This document shows positions 5,399 through 41,678 of a DNA stretch of 58,567 bases, piece by piece. Position 1 is the first letter of the stretch. Every line of letters starts with the position of its first letter. The notes beneath the pieces were generated by a model that saw nothing but the letters and a program-made list of their open reading frames with translations, had not been told where the DNA came from and made no database searches. The position numbers and the translations under genes are program-made. Source of the stretch: Chloroflexota bacterium (GTDB lineage Bacteria > Chloroflexota > Anaerolineae > Anaerolineales > Villigracilaceae); the NCBI GenBank assembly GCA_016866195.1, contig VGNF01000001.1:1-58567 (forward strand), in the 5' to 3' direction.

Positions 5399-6160
5399 CT
5401 AGGGGTTTAAAATCTTATAGTCGTCCGAGTAAGCATTTATTTCGATCTCAAAAATTCTGGTTGGAGGCAATTCATAAGAGACACTCCAACCAGGATAAGG
5501 ATAGGGGCCTAGGGAGAGGTTGATTCTGCATTGATTCCCAACAGAGATTCGCGCCTTACTTCCGCCATTATCTTCTGCCAGCTGAAGGACATCCTCAGTG
5601 GTTAATAATAGTTTTTCTAAATCAATATTTGCCCACTTAAGAAACAGTGATCGATCGTATCCATTTCCTTCGCCCCACTCGCCCTCACCAACACGTGGAT
5701 AAATCCCTATTTGGTGTACACTATATTTTTGCAATGATGTCAGCTTGTAGTATGTAATAACCACAATATCGAATCCAATCTCATCGCTGCATTCTCCGTA
5801 GAATGACATGCTGTGTAGACTCCAGTCATCTAATGATTCTTCCCAAATATGCTGATGAAGCGCCTTAGCGATCAAAAAATAATCCGCCTGTTTCCATACA
5901 AAGGGTGCTTCGTATGTATGCGGTCCGCTCGATTCGTCAATCGGCGAGAAAACATTCTTGTTCTCCTGCCTTAGGGAGTCGAGGATTGTTCTCGAATCAA
6001 ACTTAATTGTTCCCGAATTACTAAACGAGCTAAATAGAACATCGGGGTATCTGACTTCTTGCCGATCTTTAAGAATGGGGTCGCGCAATATTAAAGGACA
6101 AACTGGAATGGCAATAAGCAAGAAAATGGGTATTAGTATTTTGAGCCGCTTGTTCATCAT
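5399..6160 (-). CDS. hypothetical membrane-anchored protein, candidate immunity protein for the upstream Rhs toxin tip
   Basis: 253 aa with an N-terminal hydrophobic anchor MMNKRLKILIPIFLLIAIPVCPLIL and AT-rich codons. Its ATG lies 3 nt after the toxin stop (TAAactATGATG), with AAAGGA inside the toxin 3' end. Confidence 0.55.
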   Translation of the reverse strand: MMNKRLKILIPIFLLIAIPVCPLILRDPILKDRQEVRYPDVLFSSFSNSGTIKFDSRTILDSLRQENKNVFSPIDESSGPHTYEAPFVWKQADYFLIAKALHQHIWEESLDDWSLHSMSFYGECSDEIGFDIVVITYYKLTSLQKYSVHQIGIYPRVGEGEWGEGNGYDRSLFLKWANIDLEKLLLTTEDVLQLAEDNGGSKARISVGNQCRINLSLGPYPYPGWSVSYELPPTRIFEIEINAYSDDYKILNP

Positions 6161-7440: not shown

Positions 7441-9831
7441 CTACTCGTACGCCAGGCTTTCATTGACGCTGATGCGCGTCGCCCGCCGGGAGGGCACCCA
7501 GCTGGCCAGGATCGAAAGCAGGATTACGATCGCCAGCCAGATCCACACGCCGTGATAGGCGGGATGGTATTCCGCCGGGAATTCGATGACCTGACCCAGG
7601 GTCAGGACGAAGGCCGGGCCGGCGCTCAAACCGATGGGCAGCGCCAAGATCCAGCTGATCAGCCCCAGCATCAGGCTTTCGCCGGTGAAGACAAACCCAA
7701 CCTCCCTTGAAGAGGCGCCCACCGCCCGCATCACGCCGATCTCCCGCCGCCGTTCGATGACGTTGATCGAAAGCGTGCCGGAGAGCCCCATGCTGCCGAC
7801 GATCGCCATCAGGACCGTCATGAACATCAAAAGCTGGGTCAATATGCTGAACTGCGCGCTGGCATTGGCGCGGCTTTCGGCGGCGACGTCGGAATAACCG
7901 ATCTCAATTCCCCTCCCCTTGAAGTATTCGATCAGGTCCGCCTCGATTGCCTTCTGGGTCGCCAGGCTTTGATCCGTGCCCTGGACCATGGCCACCGCGG
8001 CCTTGCCCACGTTCCGCAAAGCCAGGTTGAGCGTTTCGATGTTGGCAAAAGCCGTATTCTGGTCGCGTCCGTTCAGGTCGAAGACCAGCCCGACGATGGT
8101 CCAGCGGGTTTCGCCGACCTCGGGGAAATCGATGATGAGCTCGTCGCCCACGCCCACCCCCATTTTCCCCGCCAGCTTCTGGTTGAGCAGGATCGCCTCT
8201 CCGTCCGCCGAATGGAGCATCCGCCCGGCGGTGATCTCCGGTTTGAAGATGGGCGATTCGGAAGGGACGCCGCGCACGAAGACCTCGTACTCGCTGCCGG
8301 GTCCGCTGGTGCCGGGGATCTTCGTGTTCGCGGTGCGGAACACCCACATCTCGGCATTCTTCACGTTCGGGCGCGATTCGATCATCGGAATGACCTCATC
8401 GATCCGCTGACGCTGCTCGAAATCGATCTCCACTTCGTACCCGAATCCGGCGAAGATGCTGTCGATGGTCTGCTCGAAGGAGTGCTGGGTGTTGAGAATC
8501 ATGATGAAGAACGCGCCGGAGACGGTCAGGGTTAATAAGGTGAGCACCACCCGCCCGGGCCGCCGGAACGTGTTTCGCAGCGAGAGGGCAGCCAGGACCG
8601 GCAGGCCGCGGATGCCGGAGATCAGGCGGTCGATGAATCGCCTCCCGTATTGCCCGCGCCCCAACCCGGTCTGGCTGATGGCGCGCGCCGCGGGGACGGC
8701 CACCCCCTGCAGGACCGGGGCAAGGCCCGCCAGCAGGGGAGTCAGCAATCCCACCAGGGCCTGCAGGAGAAATACATTCGGCAGGATTTCAAAGGCGGGA
8801 ATGGGAACGTTCAACAAGTACAGCATCCACCGCGCCAGGGCGTTCCCGGCGTACGCGCCGATCGGGACGGCGATCACCAAACTCAGGAAGCCGTAGACGA
8901 AGATGGCTGAAAGGTACATCGTGGTGATCTGGTTGCGGGTGGTGCCGATGGCTTTCATGATCCCGATCTGGGGGATCTGCTGGGCGATCAGGGCATTGAT
9001 GGTGTTGATCACCAGCATGACGCTCAACCCAAGCGAGGCCACCGCCATGACAGTCAGCACCATCCCGACGCCGTTGATCATATCCTGCAGGAAATGCTCC
9101 TCGGGATGCAGGATCTCCGAATACGCCACGGAGGCACCCTGGGGTTCCAGTTTGTCGTTGATGTCGTCGATCGCCTGCTGGACGTTCGCCTCGCTGTATT
9201 CCGGGACCGTGATCTGCAGCACGTTAAAACCGTAATACCCCGCGATGCGGGTGAAATCATCCTGGGTGACGTAAAAAGCCGCATTCTGGCCGAACGGCTT
9301 GGGGAACTCCCACGGATTGCGCAGGGTCCCATCGACGGTGTACGCGCGGGGATGTTCGTTGATCTCGAAGTACACCGTTCCCCCGATGCCGGGCGCATGG
9401 AAAGAGTCGATGTGGGCGACTTCCACACCGACCCTTTTCTTATCGGGCCAGGTTCCGTCCAACAGGGTCATCCGATCGTAGGTCTGGTGCTCCCCATCAG
9501 TGTAGGCGATGAGGCGCCCATCCTGCCAATCGTCGCTGAGGGAAGCCTTCCAATGAATGTTGGAATCCGAATAGCCCTCGATTCCATCCACGCCGGGAAG
9601 CCGTTCCAGGCTTCGGATCATGTCCTCATCCACGACGCCCCGCAGCCACAGGATGGCATGAGCCGGGTTGCTTTCCACATGCGATTCCGCCATCTGCCCG
9701 ATCACGAGCGAATTGCCCGATACCACCATGCCCACAGACATCACCCCCACGGAAATGCTCATGATCACCATGGAGGTACGGCTCTTGTTCCTCCACAGGT
9801 CGCGCCAGACCTTTCGAAATGCCATGTTCAT
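7441..9831 (-). CDS. ABC transporter permease, MacB/FtsX-type with two FtsX domains
   Basis: 796 aa. The N-terminal MAFRKVWRDLWRNKSRTSMV is typical of the FtsX family, and there is a large extracytoplasmic domain. Its ATG overlaps the stop of the upstream ATPase (ATGA). Confidence 0.9.
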   Translation of the reverse strand: MNMAFRKVWRDLWRNKSRTSMVIMSISVGVMSVGMVVSGNSLVIGQMAESHVESNPAHAILWLRGVVDEDMIRSLERLPGVDGIEGYSDSNIHWKASLSDDWQDGRLIAYTDGEHQTYDRMTLLDGTWPDKKRVGVEVAHIDSFHAPGIGGTVYFEINEHPRAYTVDGTLRNPWEFPKPFGQNAAFYVTQDDFTRIAGYYGFNVLQITVPEYSEANVQQAIDDINDKLEPQGASVAYSEILHPEEHFLQDMINGVGMVLTVMAVASLGLSVMLVINTINALIAQQIPQIGIMKAIGTTRNQITTMYLSAIFVYGFLSLVIAVPIGAYAGNALARWMLYLLNVPIPAFEILPNVFLLQALVGLLTPLLAGLAPVLQGVAVPAARAISQTGLGRGQYGRRFIDRLISGIRGLPVLAALSLRNTFRRPGRVVLTLLTLTVSGAFFIMILNTQHSFEQTIDSIFAGFGYEVEIDFEQRQRIDEVIPMIESRPNVKNAEMWVFRTANTKIPGTSGPGSEYEVFVRGVPSESPIFKPEITAGRMLHSADGEAILLNQKLAGKMGVGVGDELIIDFPEVGETRWTIVGLVFDLNGRDQNTAFANIETLNLALRNVGKAAVAMVQGTDQSLATQKAIEADLIEYFKGRGIEIGYSDVAAESRANASAQFSILTQLLMFMTVLMAIVGSMGLSGTLSINVIERRREIGVMRAVGASSREVGFVFTGESLMLGLISWILALPIGLSAGPAFVLTLGQVIEFPAEYHPAYHGVWIWLAIVILLSILASWVPSRRATRISVNESLAYE

Positions 9832-35260: not shown

Positions 35261-36748
35261 ATGGCTTTCGCTGAGTATGGAAAATATGACGGCCTGGGGC
35301 TGGCCGAACTGGTTCGCAGGAAAAAAGTCTCACCCGCCGAACTTGTGGAGGAGGCGATCCGCCGCATCGAAGCACACAACCCGAAGCTGAACTCGGTCAT
35401 CCTGCCCTTGTATGAACGGGCGCGCAAGATGGCAAAAGGAAAGCTACCCGAAGGTCCCTTCAAGGGTGTGCCCTTCTTAATGAAGGATCTGATCTCCTCG
35501 CTGGAAGGGGTTCCCACCAGCAGCGCCAATAAATTATGGAAGGACATCCCGGCCAGGGTCACCACGGAGATCGCACGGCGCTGGGAGAACAGCGGCGTGA
35601 TCGTGGTCGGCAAGGCCAACACCCCGGAATTCGGCCTTACCCCGTTCACCGAATCGGACACATTTGGACCAGCGCGCAATCCTTGGGATACGACGCGCAC
35701 CCCGGGCGGTTCCTCCGGCGGATCGGGCGCGGCGGTGGCCGCGCGCATCGTCCCGCTCGCCTCGGGCGGCGATGGAGGCGGTTCGATCCGCATCCCTTCC
35801 TCCGCGTGCGGCTTGTTCGGGCTGAAACCCACGCGCGGGCGCAACCCGACAGGCCCGCTCATCGGAGAGGCCTGGGAGGGATTCACCGTGGAGCATGTGC
35901 TCACCCGTTCGGTGCGCGACTCGGCCGCCATGCTGGATGCCACCAAGGGAGCCGACGTGGGCGCGCCGTTCATCATCCCCGATGCAGGACCGTTCCTGCG
36001 CGAGATCGGCAGGAATCCCGGCAAGCTGAGAATCGCATACACCACAAAACCCATGCTTGGGAAAAATGTGCATCCGGACTGCGTCAAGGGCGTGGATGAG
36101 ACCGTGAAACTTTTGCGGAAACTCGGCCATGCCGTGACGGAGGATGCGCCGGCGATCAACGGCGAGGAATACTCGTTGCATTTCCTAACGATCGTCGCCG
36201 CGCACATGCGCGCAGACATCGAAGAAGCCGCAGAGGCTGCCGGCAAGCGTGTTTCACCGGACGACTTCGACCTCATCACCTATGGCCCGGGCCTATTCGG
36301 GACGATTTTGAAAGCCTCGGACTATGTGCGTGCCCTCCGCTACCTGCAATCGATTTCCCGCGAAATCGGCCGCTTCTTTGAAAAATACGACATACTGTTG
36401 ACCCCTGTGCTCAATCAGCCGCCCCCGAAAGTCGGCGAACTCCAACCCTCGGCGGCGGAACAAGCCCAGCTCAAATTGATCGCGCGCACCGGCCAGACCT
36501 GGATCCTTAAAGCATTGGGCGTGATCAAACCGCTGGCCGCGCAGGTGTACGAGTTCATCCCGTGGACCCCGGTGTTCAACGTCACCGGCCAGCCGGCCAT
36601 GTCGGTTCCGCTGCATTGGAACGCGGCCGGCCTGCCGATCGGCATGCACTTCGTCGGCAAGTGGGGCGATGAAGCGACTCTCTTCCGCCTGGCCGGGCAG
36701 CTCGAGAAGGCCAAGCCATGGATCGATAAAGTACCGGCGGGGTATTGA
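35261..36748 (+). CDS. amidase (amidase-signature family)
   Basis: GGSSGGSGAAVA signature and a Ser-cisSer-Lys family layout; 495 aa. Confidence 0.9.
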   Translation: MAFAEYGKYDGLGLAELVRRKKVSPAELVEEAIRRIEAHNPKLNSVILPLYERARKMAKGKLPEGPFKGVPFLMKDLISSLEGVPTSSANKLWKDIPARVTTEIARRWENSGVIVVGKANTPEFGLTPFTESDTFGPARNPWDTTRTPGGSSGGSGAAVAARIVPLASGGDGGGSIRIPSSACGLFGLKPTRGRNPTGPLIGEAWEGFTVEHVLTRSVRDSAAMLDATKGADVGAPFIIPDAGPFLREIGRNPGKLRIAYTTKPMLGKNVHPDCVKGVDETVKLLRKLGHAVTEDAPAINGEEYSLHFLTIVAAHMRADIEEAAEAAGKRVSPDDFDLITYGPGLFGTILKASDYVRALRYLQSISREIGRFFEKYDILLTPVLNQPPPKVGELQPSAAEQAQLKLIARTGQTWILKALGVIKPLAAQVYEFIPWTPVFNVTGQPAMSVPLHWNAAGLPIGMHFVGKWGDEATLFRLAGQLEKAKPWIDKVPAGY

Positions 36749-36814: not shown

Positions 36815-36960
36815 TCCCTCCCCTCGTGTAGCACCCCCGTAGGGGGCGCAGCGGGGGAGGGATGTTCATAGGGAGTGCGGGACAACTTTGTTGTCCCGCA
36901 CTCCCGCAAGCCTCATCCCCCTTCATGGAAGGGGGGACCACAGGGGGGATGAAGCGCATT
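36815..36960. repeat. cluster of three GC-rich hairpins (REP-like)
   Basis: TCCCTCCCC...GGGGAGGGA enclosing CCCCC-gta-GGGGG. A perfect 16-bp stem GGGAGTGCGGGACAAC-ttt-GTTGTCCCGCACTCCC lies at 36871-36905, followed by CCCCCTTC-atg-GAAGGGGG. Confidence 0.55.
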
Positions 36961-36994: not shown

Positions 36995-37242
36995 ATGGTT
37001 GATGCACAAGCACGAGCCAAAAGCCTGCGCTTCGATGAAAACTCTCTTCCCATTCTGCTTAGCGATGGGTGTGAAATCAGCCTTCCGTTGGATCGCGTGG
37101 ATTGGTTGAGCTGGCTGGCAAAGGCCACCCCGCAGCAACGTGAACATGGACCATCGAGCCCGGTGGGGATGCAATCTACTGGAAGGGTCTGTACAACGGG
37201 ATCGAGATCACGCACTTACTCAGTATGCAGCCGCTGGTCTGA
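36995..37242 (+). pseudogene. DUF2442 family gene disrupted by a 1-nt frameshift
   Basis: Frame 1 reads MVDAQARAKSLRFDENSLPILLSDGCEISLPLDRVDWLSWLAKATPQQREH. After about 37146 the homologous continuation WTIEPGGDAIYWKGLYNGIEITHLLSMQPLV* is in another frame. Confidence 0.65.
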
Positions 37243-37255
37243 TTATATTTTTCTG

Positions 37256-38302
37256 CTACTTAGATCGTTGCTTTATTTCTTCGGGTTTTTGTTTCGTTGT
37301 TGATTCTTCTGGCGCATTGTCGGTAATCATTTTGATCAACGTCATAAATGGCCAGAATACTGCAAGGATTGGAGTGGTAATGATCCAAACTACAATATCA
37401 ATTAGAACATGTATTAACCGATAAAGAACATCGAAAACAAAAGGAAGGAGGGAACTCAATAGGGTTAGAATGAAGTTTACGACATGCAACACTCCCTCAA
37501 CGATATATCCCACAACCGCAAAGACAAGCACCGATCCTCTAATTGCTTCGTTAAAAATCATCGCGGCTGCCAACGCGCTGTTAAATGGCACTACAAACAC
37601 AACCACAAATGTAACAAATCGGTCTAGAAATGTACTGTTCAGATTTTCAACAACGTCAAGTCTCGCAAGTCCCCATGCGACCAATGAAGTTATGGATAAG
37701 AGACAAATAAACGCAGCCATTGCGAACATTGCCTTCCGCACCCTTGGCTCTCTTTCAGACATCGCTGTAAACTCACTTTTACTGCTCATGGTTTCAAATA
37801 AGAAGGCAAAACCAAGAATTAGGGCGATCAATGAGCCCGCAAATATCGCGATATCAAAGTTTGAAAGAAAGGGCAGGATTTCCGATAACAAACCTAGGAC
37901 GAACAATGTGTTTGCAACGGCAACAGCATCAGAGTATATGAGTAGCAAGAAACAAAGTAACAATACTACATACCCCACTGTTCTAAAGGGGTGCTCGGGG
38001 TCATATACGAGCTTCATTAGGTTGCCCAACCAATGATGAAGCGAATCGGTAACGCGCGACAATGGTTTCGTAAGTGCATCGCGGAAAGAACTCGCGCTAT
38101 CCTCAAAGAATTCTCTGGGATAGGTCGGCACATTATCTGGTTGGGAATCCTTGCGGAAAATTATTGGTTTTTGGATGAGTTTAATCGTCCTCTCCAATAC
38201 GGCTGCCCACTTCTCCCGCCAGACAATAAGAATTATGAACCAAATTACAGCTACCACTTGAAAGATGCTCGAATTCAGCAAGTTAAATAGTTGAACACCC
38301 AT
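37256..38302 (-). CDS. unassigned polytopic membrane protein (AT-rich islet)
   Basis: 348 aa with at least 7 hydrophobic segments, a soluble segment of about 70 aa after TM1 and a Lys/Glu-rich tail. It starts 10 nt after the stop of 38313..38675. Confidence 0.7.
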   Translation of the reverse strand: MGVQLFNLLNSSIFQVVAVIWFIILIVWREKWAAVLERTIKLIQKPIIFRKDSQPDNVPTYPREFFEDSASSFRDALTKPLSRVTDSLHHWLGNLMKLVYDPEHPFRTVGYVVLLLCFLLLIYSDAVAVANTLFVLGLLSEILPFLSNFDIAIFAGSLIALILGFAFLFETMSSKSEFTAMSEREPRVRKAMFAMAAFICLLSITSLVAWGLARLDVVENLNSTFLDRFVTFVVVFVVPFNSALAAAMIFNEAIRGSVLVFAVVGYIVEGVLHVVNFILTLLSSLLPFVFDVLYRLIHVLIDIVVWIITTPILAVFWPFMTLIKMITDNAPEESTTKQKPEEIKQRSK

Positions 38303-38312
38303 CTCAACCTCC

Positions 38313-38675
38313 TCATTTCTTGTTTCGCAATTCCGTGACCCTTGAGATCAGTTTTTCTTCAAGCCTAATTCCGTCAAGATAGAATGTGGACTTTGCCCCA
38401 AGTAGAGTGAATTTGCCGTCCCAACGATTCTCTCGACTCCGACAAGCCGGATCTTGTATTGGCGCACAGTCTGTTATCACGACAATAACATCAACATTGT
38501 TTAGTCGGAAAGTGATGTCGGCGGGAATTTTCGTCAGTTCACTTGGATTTCTCCAATCGATCAATTCGTCAAAAATAATTAGAATGCACTTCTCATATTT
38601 TTTGAGGCTGGTCGTGTGCATAAATAATCTAAATCTGTTGCTGCATGCATCAAACCGTAATAAACTTCCTGCCAA
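38313..38675 (-). CDS. C-terminal portion of the split lipoprotein gene (no credible independent start)
   Basis: The track ORF starts at TTG without an SD. It overlaps the upstream ORF by 97 nt in the -1 frame, joined at A_AAA_AAT (38597-38603). It contains CILIIFDELIDW and VDVIVVITDC beta-strand-like motifs. Confidence 0.5.
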   Translation of the reverse strand: MAGSLLRFDACSNRFRLFMHTTSLKKYEKCILIIFDELIDWRNPSELTKIPADITFRLNNVDVIVVITDCAPIQDPACRSRENRWDGKFTLLGAKSTFYLDGIRLEEKLISRVTELRNKK

Positions 38676-39385
38676 GGGATAGGAGCAGGTCTTTCTTCTG
38701 GTTCGTTCAAACCAATATCTTCTTCCAGTTGCTTGGCTATTTGTGAGATTTCAGCCGCCTTGGTTACCTCCCAAACTGTGTTCGTGGCAGCAATCTGCGT
38801 TCCTACTACAGTTTTATTGCATTGCTCTTCGAATGCTTTGCTTTCGTTTTCTTGTTGTTGAATACTCAGGTTATAAGCATATTCGTTCCTTGCCCTCAAC
38901 TTATCAAGATCTAATAATTTGGAAACATCTGGTGTTGGTAAGGGAGTGTATGTAACAAAGGGGACAGGTGTTTCTGGTCTTGGTGGAGAACTGGGCAACC
39001 TTGACTCAAACCCGCTAAGTCTCGCAATACTATAATCATAGTAACCGAATTCAAATAGTGAGTACTGATCTCCCGGCCCGGACATTTCAGGAGTAATTTT
39101 ATTAATAAACTCAACAAGATCGAATGTTACTTCACCATTTTTGTATTCTAAGCCATCTCCATTCGCAACACTTCCTTGATCTATCACAAAAACAAACAAG
39201 GTTGGAGAAGTCTCCAATTCCTCGCCGATTTCCAGCTCATAATCCTTAGGACAAACCCTCGGCGTGGCAGTAGGTGTAATCGTAGGACCCCAAATAAAAG
39301 TTGGGATCGCGGTACAGCTAGAAACAAATATTGTGACAAGCAGCAATGAGAGAACTGACCTTGCTGCATATCTCTTGGCTATCAC
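38579..39385 (-). CDS. unassigned lipoprotein (N-terminal portion of a probable frameshifted gene)
   Basis: I chose GTG 39385, which lies 6 nt after AAGGAGA. This gives M-IAKRYAARSVLSLLLVTIFVSSC (n-region, h-region, lipobox) followed by a Pro/Thr linker. LFVFVIDQGS weakly resembles a vWA beta1/MIDAS strand. Confidence 0.6.
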   Translation of the reverse strand: MIAKRYAARSVLSLLLVTIFVSSCTAIPTFIWGPTITPTATPRVCPKDYELEIGEELETSPTLFVFVIDQGSVANGDGLEYKNGEVTFDLVEFINKITPEMSGPGDQYSLFEFGYYDYSIARLSGFESRLPSSPPRPETPVPFVTYTPLPTPDVSKLLDLDKLRARNEYAYNLSIQQQENESKAFEEQCNKTVVGTQIAATNTVWEVTKAAEISQIAKQLEEDIGLNEPEERPAPIPWQEVYYGLMHAATDLDYLCTRPASKNMRSAF

Positions 39386-39547
39386 GGTAATCTCCTTTGA
39401 AATTCCAAGAGTAAGACCTTTTAATCTCCCATTAATATTCGCAATCATATTCTATTTTTTTTTTTGACAAGTGACATCGCTCCTTGTTCCTTTTACTATT
39501 ACCTCCCCTGACACCGTCCTGCCACAAAAGCGTGATATGCTTCGCGC

Positions 39548-40231
39548 ATGCCCCAGCGCATCCTGGTCGTGGACGACGAACCGGCGGTCACCGATCTGCT
39601 GGCCTACAACCTGCGCAAAGCGCATTTCGAAATCTCGATCGCATCCGACGGGCGGGCAGCCTTGCGGCTGGCCGGGGAGTTTAACCCTGACCTGATCCTG
39701 CTCGATCTGATGATCCCCGAGGTGGATGGCCTCGACGTCTGCCGCGAACTCCGCAAATCGAATAACGTCCCCATCATCATGATCACCGCCCGCGGCGAGG
39801 AGACCGACCGCGTGGTGGGTCTCGAACTGGGCGCGGACGATTACGTCACCAAGCCGTTCAGCGTGCGCGAACTGATGGCGCGGGTCAAGGCCGTGCTGCG
39901 CCGCGTGGAAAACAAGGCCTCGGGATCCTCCACGATCCTCTCCGCCGAGGGCGGCCTCCGCATGGACGTGGAACGCCGGGAGGTGATCGTCAACGATGCG
40001 CCGCTCGAACTCACACGCCTCGAATTCGACCTGCTGCATCGGTTGTTGATCAACCCAGGCCGCGTGCTGACGCGCGAGCGCCTGCTGGAGCAGGCCTGGG
40101 GCTACGACTTCGTCGGCGACACGCGCGCGGTGGACAGCGCCGTCAAACGTCTGCGCGCCAAGCTGCGCGCCGCCTCCCCGCAAGCCGATTGCATCGAATC
40201 CGTGCGCGGCCTCGGCTATCGGATCGGCTGA
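39548..40231 (+). CDS. OmpR/PhoB-family response regulator
   Basis: Receiver domain (ILVVDDE, DLILLDLMIPEVDG, K105-like) plus a winged-helix C-terminus (VDSAVKRLRAKL, GLGYRI). Confidence 0.9.
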   Translation: MPQRILVVDDEPAVTDLLAYNLRKAHFEISIASDGRAALRLAGEFNPDLILLDLMIPEVDGLDVCRELRKSNNVPIIMITARGEETDRVVGLELGADDYVTKPFSVRELMARVKAVLRRVENKASGSSTILSAEGGLRMDVERREVIVNDAPLELTRLEFDLLHRLLINPGRVLTRERLLEQAWGYDFVGDTRAVDSAVKRLRAKLRAASPQADCIESVRGLGYRIG

Positions 40232-40232
40232 C

Positions 40233-41678
40233 ATGCAGAGCATCCGCTCCCGTCTTTCACGCAATCATCTGCTCGTGCTTGCACTCGGCATGACGCTCGC
40301 AGCCGGGCTCACCTGGCAGGTGGTCTCGAACCTCTATATCGAAACCCAGCGCGCTAACCTATTGGAGCAGGCCCGATTGATTGCCGCCGCGCTTCAGGGC
40401 GCGGCACTCCCTGAAAATTCCCAACCCTATTCACAAGCTGCAAACATCGCGCCGGGAATCCACACCCGCCTGCTGACCGAGGGTGGCGCGGTCGCCATCG
40501 GGCTGCCGCTGGTAAACACGGCCGTGCAAATGCCTCTCGCAGAAGGAACCACCCTCGTCACGACCGCTGAGCTGCTTCAACGTCCCGAGATCGAATCAGC
40601 CCTCAGCGGCAGCCCCTCGACCGCTGTACGACGTGTGCTCGATAACCGGCGCTTGCTGTACGCTGCCGCGCCCATCCAGACAGACGACGGGCGGGTCAGC
40701 GGTATCATCTACCTCGCCACGCCACTGCCCGGCTCCGGCCTGCCGACGGATGTCATCCTCCAAATGATCGGCGCAAGCATCCTGGCGATATTCCTGGCAG
40801 TGCTCGCCGGGCGACTCCTGGCGCGGCAGATCGCGCGTCCCCTGGAGGGACTCGCACAGGCTGCATCGGGAATCGCAGGCGGCGACCTGAATGCCCGCTC
40901 GACAACGGAGGATCACATCAAGGAATTGCACGATCTGGCAGGGACCTTCAATCACATGGCCGATAGCCTGCAGCAGTCGGACCAGACCAAAAAGGCTTTC
41001 ATCGCCGATGTGGCACATGAACTGCGCACTCCTCTGACCGTCATCAAGGGCACGATCGAAACCCTGGAGGACGGCGCGCTCGACGATCGCGAGGGGCGCG
41101 GGCCACTGCTGGCGTCCATGCAGCGCGAAACCGACCGCTTGATCCGGCTGGTGAACGAACTGTTGATCCTCACCCGCGCCGACGCCGGGCAACTCCCGTT
41201 GGAACTTGAACAGGTGGATCTGGTCGACCTGGCGCGCGGCCGCTGCGAGAACCTGAACCGGCTTGCCGGGCGCAGCCGGGTCCAACTAAGAATGGAAGAC
41301 CTCACCGGTGGGAATACCCACATCCCCGCCGACCCCGACCGGCTGGTGCAAGTGTTCGACAACCTGCTCGACAACGCGGTCCGCCACTCTCCGCAGGACT
41401 CGATGGTCACCGTTACGATCCGTGAGGCCGGCGGCGGAATCGAATGTTCCGTCAGCGATCAGGGACCGGGCATATCCGCCCAACACCTGCCGTACATCTT
41501 CGAGCGTTTCTACCGCGTCGAAAAGTCACGTGACCGTTCCAGCGGCGGCACCGGGCTGGGTCTCGCCATCGTGCGTGCGCTGGTAAGTGCTCACGGAGGC
41601 CGTGTCTCCGCGGACAGCGCCGAAGACAAGGGGACAACAATCACGTTCTGGCTGCCTCATTCCCCCTCACCTCGCTGA
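40233..41678 (+). CDS. sensor histidine kinase (2 TM, HAMP, HisKA, HATPase_c)
   Basis: H-box FIADVAHELRTPLT, N-box DNLLDNAVRHS, and G-boxes DQGPGI and GGTGLGLAIV. Confidence 0.9.
   Translation: MQSIRSRLSRNHLLVLALGMTLAAGLTWQVVSNLYIETQRANLLEQARLIAAALQGAALPENSQPYSQAANIAPGIHTRLLTEGGAVAIGLPLVNTAVQMPLAEGTTLVTTAELLQRPEIESALSGSPSTAVRRVLDNRRLLYAAAPIQTDDGRVSGIIYLATPLPGSGLPTDVILQMIGASILAIFLAVLAGRLLARQIARPLEGLAQAASGIAGGDLNARSTTEDHIKELHDLAGTFNHMADSLQQSDQTKKAFIADVAHELRTPLTVIKGTIETLEDGALDDREGRGPLLASMQRETDRLIRLVNELLILTRADAGQLPLELEQVDLVDLARGRCENLNRLAGRSRVQLRMEDLTGGNTHIPADPDRLVQVFDNLLDNAVRHSPQDSMVTVTIREAGGGIECSVSDQGPGISAQHLPYIFERFYRVEKSRDRSSGGTGLGLAIVRALVSAHGGRVSADSAEDKGTTITFWLPHSPSPR

Follow-up and report, generated by a model that had tools for sequence, protein, structure and literature searches.

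We analysed a stretch of 58,567 nucleotides of Chloroflexota DNA (hereafter the window), in which an AT-rich islet at positions 37256-39470 carries a lipoprotein gene and, just downstream, the gene of a polytopic membrane protein. Among Anaerolineae-type Chloroflexota, these two genes form a cassette whose members evolve together, uncoupled from the flanking genes, and purifying selection acts on both (dN/dS about 0.1). According to structure modelling, the body of the lipoprotein has a vWA-like alpha/beta fold. As a tentative best explanation, we propose that the pair is an extracytoplasmic sensing or binding module that is horizontally exchanged and tied to signalling genes. In the window itself, a genuine deletion of one base, fixed here and in four other assemblies of the strain, splits the lipoprotein gene, and this copy is most likely inactive, or made only at trace level by -1 slippage on A_AAA_AAU.

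The islet has a GC content of 41.8%, against 58.6% in the remaining window, with sharp transitions at its edges (about 37250 and about 39470), and GC3 is 0.36 and 0.44 in the cassette genes and 0.74-0.85 in the flanking genes. As the preliminary description reported, this block holds a single minus-strand unit, the split lipoprotein gene followed by the membrane protein gene. One flank carries an amidase gene (35261-36748) and, adjoining the 3' end of the islet, a frameshifted DUF2442 remnant (36995-37244, plus strand; PF10387 match with E 7.7e-11 after repair). This remnant, which corresponds to the toxin-antitoxin-like debris noticed earlier, is context of the islet, outside the module, and is mostly deleted in L012, a relative of 93% identity that carries the islet at the same site. 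On the other flank, divergent from the cassette and of host-like composition, are an OmpR-type response regulator (39548-40231, plus strand) and a HAMP/HisKA histidine kinase (40233-41678, plus strand), in an arrangement that is the same in L012 and L030. A search of the flanks for direct repeats, att sites and target duplications gave nothing convincing, and Rfam gave no match within the islet or next to it, whether in the window or in L001, L005 and L009. A 188-aa ORF on the plus strand (37470-38036) was discarded as an antisense shadow of the membrane gene.

The composition of the islet was at first described as foreign. It is indeed atypical for the host, but a recent one-off import was rejected as the cause of the AT-richness because the islet occupies the same site in the relative and because low GC3 is found family-wide. 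In four hosts, GC3 is 0.29-0.46 in the pair and 0.56-0.72 in its neighbours, and in all hosts whose flanks could be used for comparison the cassette is rich in AT, which makes this composition a trait of the cassette itself.

In the window, the lipoprotein gene appears as two ORFs on the minus strand. The N-terminal one (38579-39448, 289 aa) comprises the signal peptide, the lipobox, a Pro/Thr linker, strands beta1 to beta3 and a long helical insert (HMM positions 6-253, E 6.7e-64), and is ended by a premature TAA (38581-38579). The C-terminal one, of 120 aa, lies in a shifted frame (38313-38675), and its part past the break (38313-38597) supplies beta4 to beta6 and helices, the conserved Cys288, Cys328 and Cys336 and a DWR motif (HMM positions 253-338, E 1.8e-31). 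Since each homologue is encoded by one uninterrupted ORF (330-373 aa), the two ORFs are one gene, and the earlier reading of the second as a continuation of the first in another frame was correct. The lesion is a 1-nt deletion, A6 at 38603-38598 (minus strand) where relatives have A7; the A7 is in frame in L010, L011 and L012, and all relatives are in frame. An assembly error was rejected because four independent assemblies from different samples (L030-L033) are 100% identical to the window, all with A6.

It is somewhat probable, in our judgement, that the window copy is a decaying remnant without current function, a reading that fits any functional interpretation of the family. The frameshift, fixed in the window and the four assemblies, removes half of the vWA-like fold, and a second frameshifted gene, that of DUF2442, lies next door. 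However, the membrane gene shows no damage, no other disabling mutation is present, and dN/dS past the break is 0.093 against an intact relative, which indicates that the lesion is recent. Moreover, the break falls exactly on an in-frame slippery heptamer of the X XXY YYZ type (tcA AAA AAT in the 0 frame; candidate -1 slippage sequence CCTCAAAAAATATGAG) that could allow low-level -1 read-through; a -1 shift at this place would give ...PASKN-YEKC... as read from the sequence. Against such recoding, and in favour of decay, folding of the RNA 3' of the heptamer revealed no stable stimulatory structure (z +0.44 against shuffles). The frameshift itself is not conserved, the relatives of 93% identity being in frame. 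Since the fixed deletion truncates the lipoprotein, the module of the window is probably inactive, and any function of this protein would be idle here unless recoded.

The true start of the lipoprotein gene is more likely the GTG at 39385-39383 (minus strand) than the ATG at 39448, because the latter abuts a -10-like TAGAAT. Homologues also begin near this GTG, which is preceded by a putative Shine-Dalgarno sequence AAGGAG (39397-39392, minus strand), and the product would then have a signal peptide of 23 residues, MIAKRYAARSVLSLLLVTIFVSS followed by C. The codon of the lipobox cysteine (39316-39314, minus strand) follows VSS and precedes the Pro/Thr linker, both features having been recognised from the start, and the window sequence, ...LLLVTIFVSS followed by C, matches the pattern [LVI][ASTVI][GAS]C. 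In the alignment of 71 members this cysteine is nearly invariant, with the consensus LxGC, and six more cysteines are nearly invariant as well. The lipobox predicts that the protein is anchored by lipid.

Upstream, a consensus scan found a promoter-like site, ATGTCA-17 nt-TAGAAT (39449-39477, minus strand), such sites being no more numerous in the region than expected by chance. Its spacer contains an A11 tract (39465-39455, minus strand) and a second -35-like hexamer, TTGTCA, and an element made of TTGWCA plus an A-run recurs 5' of the homologues in L005, L017 and L001. An A tract placed between -35-like and -10-like hexamers recalls phase-variable surface proteins, and slippage in the promoter and coding tracts could in principle toggle the lipoprotein, which is fast-evolving and predicted to be surface-exposed. 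Over 2.48 kb of 92.7% identity, the window and L012 differ by indels solely in these two poly-A tracts (A11 and A14 in the spacer, A6 and A7 in the gene). Nevertheless, we consider phase variation quite unlikely: at the consensus level the window and the four assemblies from other samples all have A11 and A6, the family as a whole does not conserve the tracts, homopolymers are anyway the likeliest sites of neutral indels, and A6-A7 is short for efficient slippage in simple-sequence contingency loci. For the surface variation that had been suggested for this locus, these identical lengths give no support by way of the A tracts.

Using the 71-sequence alignment, AlphaFold produced a model of the fused lipoprotein with pLDDT 89.7 and pTM 0.76, against a pLDDT of only 45.7 with an alignment of 6 sequences. 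Nearly all of the top 50 Foldseek matches of this model in the PDB are vWA domains, with a probability of up to 1.00, modest E values (best 1.6e-3 to 2e-3) and a TM-score of about 0.5 normalised to the target; they include integrin I domains, MERIT40, ITIH1, factor B, a BatA-like protein and two adhesins of pili, PitA and SpaC. The BFVD matches are also VWFA proteins, and weak, sub-threshold profile matches to the vWA domains of collagen VI (E about 0.02) were obtained among PDB sequences. The strands singled out in the preliminary description are beta strands in the model (LFVFVID, E83-89; CILIIF, E287-293; VIVVI, E320-324), and the vWA-like domain is split by a helical insert of about 130 residues (Pro/Thr plus helical). 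The description of the protein as weakly vWA-like therefore holds for the confident model and its vWA-dominated matches. By contrast, the strand LFVFVIDQGS, once thought to be possibly MIDAS-like, is a beta strand of the model without a conserved MIDAS: the motif DxSxS...T...D is not conserved in the 71 sequences, with no conserved Ser at +2 or +4, and the residue after beta1 is D in 41/71 and E in 16/71, the window reading DQGSV. As this motif is not conserved, the classic vWA ligand-binding mode is unlikely. None of the 71 members matches the Pfam VWA, VWA_2 or related HMMs, and the domain probably holds three disulfides.

The stop of the lipoprotein gene (38313) and the ATG of the membrane gene (38302) are separated by a gap of 10 nt that contains the Shine-Dalgarno sequence GGAGG (38312-38308, minus strand). 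The membrane gene (37256-38302, minus strand) encodes a protein of 348 aa with 8-9 TM segments, where at least 7 had been counted earlier, a basic loop of about 80 residues after TM1, predicted to be cytoplasmic, and the Lys/Glu tail already described. No internal repeat was found in it, and profile and sequence searches of the family against PDB sequences gave only noise. Many polar residues within the TM segments are invariant, and so are acidic or polar residues at the predicted membrane boundaries (D125, N131, T132, E170, N241, D291 and R295). The protein may be an enzyme or a transporter, and the boundary residues would suit a role in envelope biogenesis or transport, in which it would act on a polyprenyl-linked or other substrate with the lipoprotein as accessory. 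A polyprenyl-synthase-like gene in the conserved block of L001, L009, L019 and L023 points in the same direction, and low GC is frequent among surface-polymer genes. However, this role appears improbable to us, as the protein resembles no transporter or glycosyltransferase family, neither the window locus nor L005 has the polyprenyl synthase, and there are no consistent ATPase or sugar-activation genes nearby.

Searches of Pfam, NCBIfam, PADLOC and PDB sequences gave no match for either protein, in agreement with the initial impression that the ORFs belong to no characterised family, and the literature searched contains no description of such a pair; the Lipocone paper was checked as a source of a relationship and proved unrelated. 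The lipoprotein family comprises about 116 clusters at 50% identity, and a second, word-indexed protein search with alignment yielded two further membrane homologues. In every checkable locus, that is, one with enough sequence (about 16 distinct lineages), the membrane partner lies directly 3' of the lipoprotein gene, and the two genes are thus strictly co-conserved, as had been supposed. This pairing is kept at about 24% lipoprotein identity (L019), in the tandem-duplicated L036 and in the fused L034, and the identities of lipoprotein and partner co-vary (Spearman 0.88). The dN/dS values of 0.116 for the lipoprotein and 0.077 for the membrane gene suggest that function is retained in the lineage. 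The identities of the pair and of the regulator beside it are uncoupled. The lipoprotein is fast-evolving, at about 25% identity in cases in which the regulator retains 51-58%. The persistent AT-richness of the cassette would be explained by its exchange as one piece among Anaerolineae-type Chloroflexota.

Among the loci examined, the commonest neighbour of the pair is a two-component system and not defence genes; in the roughly 10 neighbourhoods inspected two-component genes dominate and TIR-like or HEPN-like genes occur in three, many homologue contigs being too short to judge adjacency to two-component genes. A NarL-type response regulator is divergent from the pair in L001, L009, L013, L015, L019 and L023, an OmpR-type regulator with its kinase stands beside it in the window, L012 and L030, and the block formed by histidine kinase, polyprenyl synthase, response regulator and pair is syntenic; no response regulator adjoins the pair in L005. 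Other neighbours are SecA, aconitase and Hsp70. In one lineage, the protein P0026 is a fusion in which a TM helix links a KGGVGR ATPase (NF047398, E 1e-37) to the lipoprotein domain, and its gene directly follows a TIR-like one, the TIR matches being far under curated cut-offs (34.9 vs 130 bits); the ATPase part of P0026 matches the PADLOC candidate PDC-M28B, and a methyltransferase-like gene adjoins this fusion locus.

This last locus bears on the defence or conflict role expected in the preliminary description, in which the surface lipoprotein of an anti-phage or inter-bacterial system would detect an invader or neighbour and the membrane protein would be the effector, for example a depolarising one. 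Such a role would be consistent with an AT-rich, horizontally exchanged cassette and a fast-evolving lipoprotein, with the DUF2442 remnant that adjoins the islet, with genes for a Ymh-family protein and a HEPN-like-motif protein downstream in L037, and with a TIR_2 gene 8 kb from the pair in L001. Yet we regard it as unlikely, since PADLOC gave no match for the pair or its distant homologues (PADLOC-DB 2.0, window proteins and four homologues, E<=0.1), the neighbourhoods are mostly regulatory or housekeeping, and the core pair is without nuclease, NTPase or other recognised effector domain. The invariant polar residues of the membrane protein also fit an enzyme, transporter or transducer better than a simple pore.

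As an extracytoplasmic sensing or binding module, our preferred reading, the cassette could work as follows. A lipid anchor and the Pro/Thr linker would attach the lipoprotein to the outside of the cell membrane, and its vWA-like domain, devoid of a conserved metal site, would bind an extracytoplasmic ligand or a component of the envelope or surface. It would form a complex with the membrane partner, which would pass the signal across the membrane, and the signalling genes next door would provide the module with input or output: in the window and most relatives a two-component system, in one lineage a TIR-like protein and a KGGVGR ATPase. The OmpR-type regulator and kinase are a possible functional neighbour of the cassette. 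The data establish the fold class, the structure of the genes, their co-inheritance under purifying selection, the frameshift and the neighbourhoods. Complex formation, the sensing role and the coupling to signalling genes are what we infer; adjacency to a regulator could instead reflect regulation of the pair, or coincidence, because the regulator is of the NarL or the OmpR family depending on the lineage and is missing in L005. A bolder proposal, which we offer with little confidence, is that the MIDAS-less lipoprotein senses a foreign or neighbour-cell surface cue and that its partner relays this to interchangeable cytoplasmic outputs, two-component or TIR/KGGVGR, which would make the pair a novel type of conflict or kin-recognition system that works by surface sensing in filamentous, multicellular Chloroflexota.

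If our reading is true, the cassette would add two protein families new to Pfam, NCBIfam and PADLOC, as a portable envelope module in the Anaerolineae, organisms that are abundant and almost genetically intractable. Its vWA fold is extremely divergent, split and without metal site, and the recurrent link of the module to two-component, TIR-like and ATPase genes would open up a new mechanism of surface sensing to testing. The composition is a puzzle in itself, as GC3 of the cassette remains about 0.3 below that of its hosts across deep divergence, with a history decoupled from that of the neighbours. For the window, the analysis establishes that the lipoprotein gene is a frameshift mutant.

The closest comparison by place is a second pair of vWA lipoprotein and membrane protein found downstream in L009, L023, L025 and L026, which has the same layout, lies in the same AT-rich islet and adjoins the cassette. 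Its lipoprotein differs in that the MIDAS is canonical (DxSxS/TDG) and Pfam VWA is matched weakly, and hhalign detected no relationship between the lipoprotein family and the canonical vWA lipoprotein of L009, or between the membrane family and the second membrane protein of L009. With the pairs of TIR and KGGVGR AAA ATPase (FxsC-like; PDC-M28) the family is connected by L034 and L035, in which the gene that directly follows a TIR-like one joins the same domain to a KGGVGR ATPase, whereas the cassette of the window has neither a TIR gene nor an ATPase. Compared with vWA and integrin I-domain proteins, among them the BatA/BatB-like proteins of bacterial envelopes and the adhesins SpaC and PitA of pilus tips, the lipoprotein is alike in its predicted Rossmann-like alpha/beta fold, extracytoplasmic place and strand order, and shares hydrophobic beta1 and beta4 strands that end in acidic residues; it differs from them by the lack of a Pfam VWA/VWA_2 match and of a DxSxS MIDAS, by its insert of about 130 residues, by its six conserved Cys and by its pairing with a specific membrane protein. 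RcsF-IgaA and NlpE, the functional analogy on which our preferred reading draws, are lipoprotein or membrane accessories of phosphorelay or two-component systems (RcsCDB and CpxAR, respectively). Although kinase coupling is here read from the gene neighbourhood and the host is a member of the Chloroflexota with a different envelope, the layout is alike in all of them, a surface lipoprotein and a polytopic membrane protein that are encoded next to a histidine kinase and response regulator or act together with them.

The block at 37256-39470 on the minus strand holds an undescribed, strictly co-inherited pair of genes encoding a vWA-fold lipoprotein and its membrane partner. Its GC content is 41.8%, versus 58.6% in the rest of the window, and its edges are sharp. 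The block encodes the N-terminal part of the lipoprotein (289 aa, 38579-39448), the C-terminal part in a shifted frame (120 aa, 38313-38675) and a membrane protein (348 aa, 37256-38302), the latter starting 10 nt past the preceding stop with a ribosome-binding site, GGAGG. The two cassette genes have GC3 values of 0.36 and 0.44, the surrounding amidase, response-regulator, kinase, sulfatase and SIMPL genes 0.74-0.85; the flanks are the amidase gene (35261-36748) and an OmpR-type response regulator with a HAMP/HisKA kinase (39548-41678). The re-derived ORFs, coordinates, composition and flanks therefore agree with the preliminary description in every factual element.

Convergent with the cassette and abutting it is a frameshifted DUF2442 gene (36995-37244, plus strand), which after repair matches PF10387 (E 7.7e-11) and of which the 3' end alone is kept in the relative L012; with it, this strain carries two real frameshifts within 1.5 kb. 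A perfect 16-nt inverted repeat, GGGAGTGCGGGACAAC / GTTGTCCCGCACTCCC, with a 3-nt loop (36871-36905), lies in the GC-rich spacer that follows the amidase gene and could act as a terminator or as a binding site. Elsewhere in the window, a c-di-GMP-I riboswitch aptamer (RF01051; 51887-51967, minus strand) scores 58 bits against a gathering score of 35.

Using homologous loci from other contigs, we found that wherever a locus was long enough (the window, L012, L001, L005, L009, L013, L015, L017, L019, L022-L027, L034/L035, L036 and L037) the membrane gene comes immediately 3' of the lipoprotein gene and in the same orientation, with a spacing ranging from overlapping up to about 60 nt; the two genes, which had been proposed to form a module, are indeed conserved together. 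This pairing is kept where the lipoprotein is at ~24% identity (L019), where it is tandem-duplicated (P0124, L036) and where it occurs in a fused form (P0026), and the pairwise identities of lipoprotein and membrane partner co-vary (Spearman 0.88). The genome matches (n=3) are Anaerolinea or Anaerolineales MAGs. A tmRNA gene lies 4 kb from the cassette of L005 (11246-11629, minus strand; Anaerolinea MAG GCA_964591425).

In the homologues, one ORF of about 330-373 aa covers both lipoprotein ORFs of the window, which, as the earlier reading of a split gene continued in another frame had it, are one gene with a genuine 1-nt deletion. The break lies in an A6 run (38603-38598), where three contigs of ~93% nucleotide identity (L010, L011, L012) have A7 and read in frame through ...PASKKYEKC.... 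An assembly artefact as the cause of the split is ruled out by four contigs from different samples and assemblers, L030 (JGI 3300020220), L031 (SRR16108672), L032 (SRR7052952) and L033 (SRR7053050), which share 100% identity with the window across 2.7-3.8 kb, its A6 run included. Measured against L012, whose allele is intact, dN/dS comes to 0.116 (lipoprotein), 0.093 (its part past the break) and 0.077 (membrane gene), values by which purifying selection acts on the family and the lesion is recent. The break creates the 0-frame heptamer tcA AAA AAT (X XXY YYZ type), on which a -1 slip would give back the full-length lipoprotein. Programmed -1 recoding is unsupported, because no stable RNA structure was found 3' of the heptamer (RNA fold, z +0.44) and the frameshift is present in none of the relatives. 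A-rich slippery sites are known, for example in IS1, and by analogy with these, trace-level read-through would be expected at most. The window copy is probably non-functional, its frameshift genuine and fixed.

The true start of the lipoprotein is likely GTG 39385, which is preceded by a Shine-Dalgarno-like AAGGAG (39397-39392) and yields a classic 23-residue lipoprotein signal peptide ending VSS/C; the alternative upstream ATG (39448) abuts a -10-like TAGAAT. The latter belongs to a promoter-like site, ATGTCA-17 nt-TAGAAT (39477-39449, minus strand), the spacer of which is an A11 tract. Promoter-like sites are no more numerous in the region than by chance; a TTGWCA plus A-run element is also found upstream in L005, L017 and L001, with normal spacers of 16-17 nt. 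Over 2.48 kb, the sole indels between the window and L012 are in these two A tracts (A11 vs A14 in the promoter-like site, A6 vs A7 at the break), a confinement suggestive of slippage, by which phase variation would be possible; it is unsupported, because four other assemblies of the strain do not differ from the window and the A tracts are not conserved across the lipoprotein family. Between a small DUF2292-like ORF and the lipoprotein gene, close to the latter, L001 (8809-8880) and L009 (8779-8850) carry an identical 31-nt element, GGCTTTGGCRAGGACGAAAGATTTCCGGAAG, followed by a terminator-like hairpin; the element has no Rfam match and is absent from the window.

No match to the lipoprotein was obtained with Pfam, NCBIfam or PADLOC models, nor to the membrane protein with these or with PDB sequences, in agreement with the earlier failure to recognise a known family. 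A profile search of 1.84 billion representatives retrieved 116 lipoprotein clusters at E<=1e-3, mostly of 330-370 aa, and a Pfam match was found for 0/71 full-length members. The AlphaFold model (pLDDT 89.7, pTM 0.76, 71-sequence alignment) has strands at 83-89, 128-133, 143-148, 287-293, 320-324 and 354-358, flanked by helices; a very long helical insertion (180-247 plus 262-278) separates the two halves. With this model, the top 50 Foldseek matches in the PDB are almost all vWA domains, including CD11b and other integrin I domains, MERIT40 of the BRCA1-A complex, the pilus adhesins PitA and SpaC, ITIH1, factor B, TFIIH p44, Ku80, collagen VI, a BatA-like Bacteroides protein and VWF A2; the BFVD matches are VWFA proteins too, and weak profile matches to collagen VI vWA domains point in the same direction. 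The protein had been called weakly vWA-like, which the model bears out, with a possible MIDAS-like strand, which the family does not: no DxSxS is conserved, and Asp/Glu alone is common after beta1. Nearly invariant are the lipobox Cys, six further Cys (66, 210, 277, 288, 328, 336), a PGD motif ahead of beta2 and a DWR motif past beta4. By its fold matches, unconserved MIDAS and long insert, the protein is thus a new lipoprotein of vWA fold, highly divergent and lacking the MIDAS.

In the membrane protein there are 8-9 hydrophobic segments, and the N-terminus is probably on the outside; TM1 is followed by a basic loop of ~80 residues (12-13 Lys/Arg), and the tail is Lys- and Glu-rich. Across 20 sequences with identity down to 25%, many polar residues, namely D125, N131, T132, S176, R214, N241, D291, R295 and T310, are invariant and sit inside or beside membrane segments; no internal repeat was found.

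The pair is AT-rich wherever flanks permit comparison (GC 34-43% vs 47-60% in most flanks; GC3 0.29-0.46 vs 0.56-0.72 in L001, L005, L009 and L019). L001, L009, L019 and L023 share a syntenic block composed of a multi-pass histidine kinase (GAF, HisKA_3), a polyprenyl-synthase-like gene, a divergent NarL-type response regulator and the pair. Whichever loci are compared, the adjacent regulators are separated by about the same distance (50-65% identity), and the pair ranges from 23% to 83% over the same comparisons, uncorrelated with the regulator (Spearman 0.10-0.14): at 58% regulator identity, the membrane proteins of L009 and L023 are 83% identical and those of L009 and L019 32%. The pair therefore behaves as a unit exchanged or replaced independently of its neighbours; such behaviour would account for the lasting low GC more readily than one recent import would. 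The cassette of the window lineage is at a different site, between the amidase and the OmpR-type system, common to the 93%-identical L012; here the cassette diverges to a similar extent as its flanks, and no att-like repeats were found around the window cassette. Horizontal exchange spreads the pair among Anaerolineae-type bacteria, where it mostly lies next to signalling genes.

The response-regulator gene divergent from the pair is of OmpR type in the window/L012/L030 lineage and of NarL type in six other lineages, and is absent at L005. Conserved motifs GGGTAACARAAA ... AGTACAAATGYCTAYGCC adjoin the NarL-type regulator start (L001 ~8065-8130, L009 ~8100-8165, L019 ~5760-5825, L013 ~535-600) and may be an autoregulatory operator or leader; beyond them lies a GC-rich conserved stretch in L001, L009 and L015. 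Directly after the L019 cassette, a MvdD/RimK-like ATP-grasp gene and the 56-aa ORF that follows it (8085-9295) may form a graspetide (RiPP) pair. A second AT-rich gene or gene pair lies past the cassette in L009 (11072-14124), L023 (4563-5345), L025 (2789-3796) and L026 (2544-4481); it encodes a second lipoprotein with a canonical vWA domain and MIDAS, recognised by DxSxS and TDG motifs and, in L026, by a VWA_2 match (E 4.9e-5). In L009 a membrane protein of 381 aa comes next; in L025 the second lipoprotein gene is directly followed by a transposase-like ORF in opposite orientation that overlaps its 3' end.

The fully AT-rich contigs L034 (163-6335) and L035 show a variant architecture: a methyltransferase-like gene, a 354-aa unknown, a TIR-like gene (weak FxsC-N and ThcB4 matches), directly followed by a gene in which the extracytoplasmic domain is fused via a TM helix to a KGGVGR-motif AAA ATPase (NF047398, E 1e-37, above cut-off), and then the membrane partner. 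Downstream of the L037 pair are a Ymh-family gene and a protein with a HEPN-like motif. These few contexts are consistent with a defence or conflict role, which the pair may have and which the preliminary description expected; no PADLOC model matches the pair. That interpretation is partly supported: the undescribed, co-inherited pair stands, the MIDAS does not and the defence role is left without a PADLOC match. All the neighbourhoods described, those with a response regulator included, combine an extracytoplasmic domain and a membrane protein with adjacent genes for cytoplasmic signalling or effectors; for this reason we favour a role in sensing or transduction, to which they would point. 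Envelope proteins with a vWA domain and a membrane partner are a known kind, and the pair is a very divergent variant of these, not a categorically new system.
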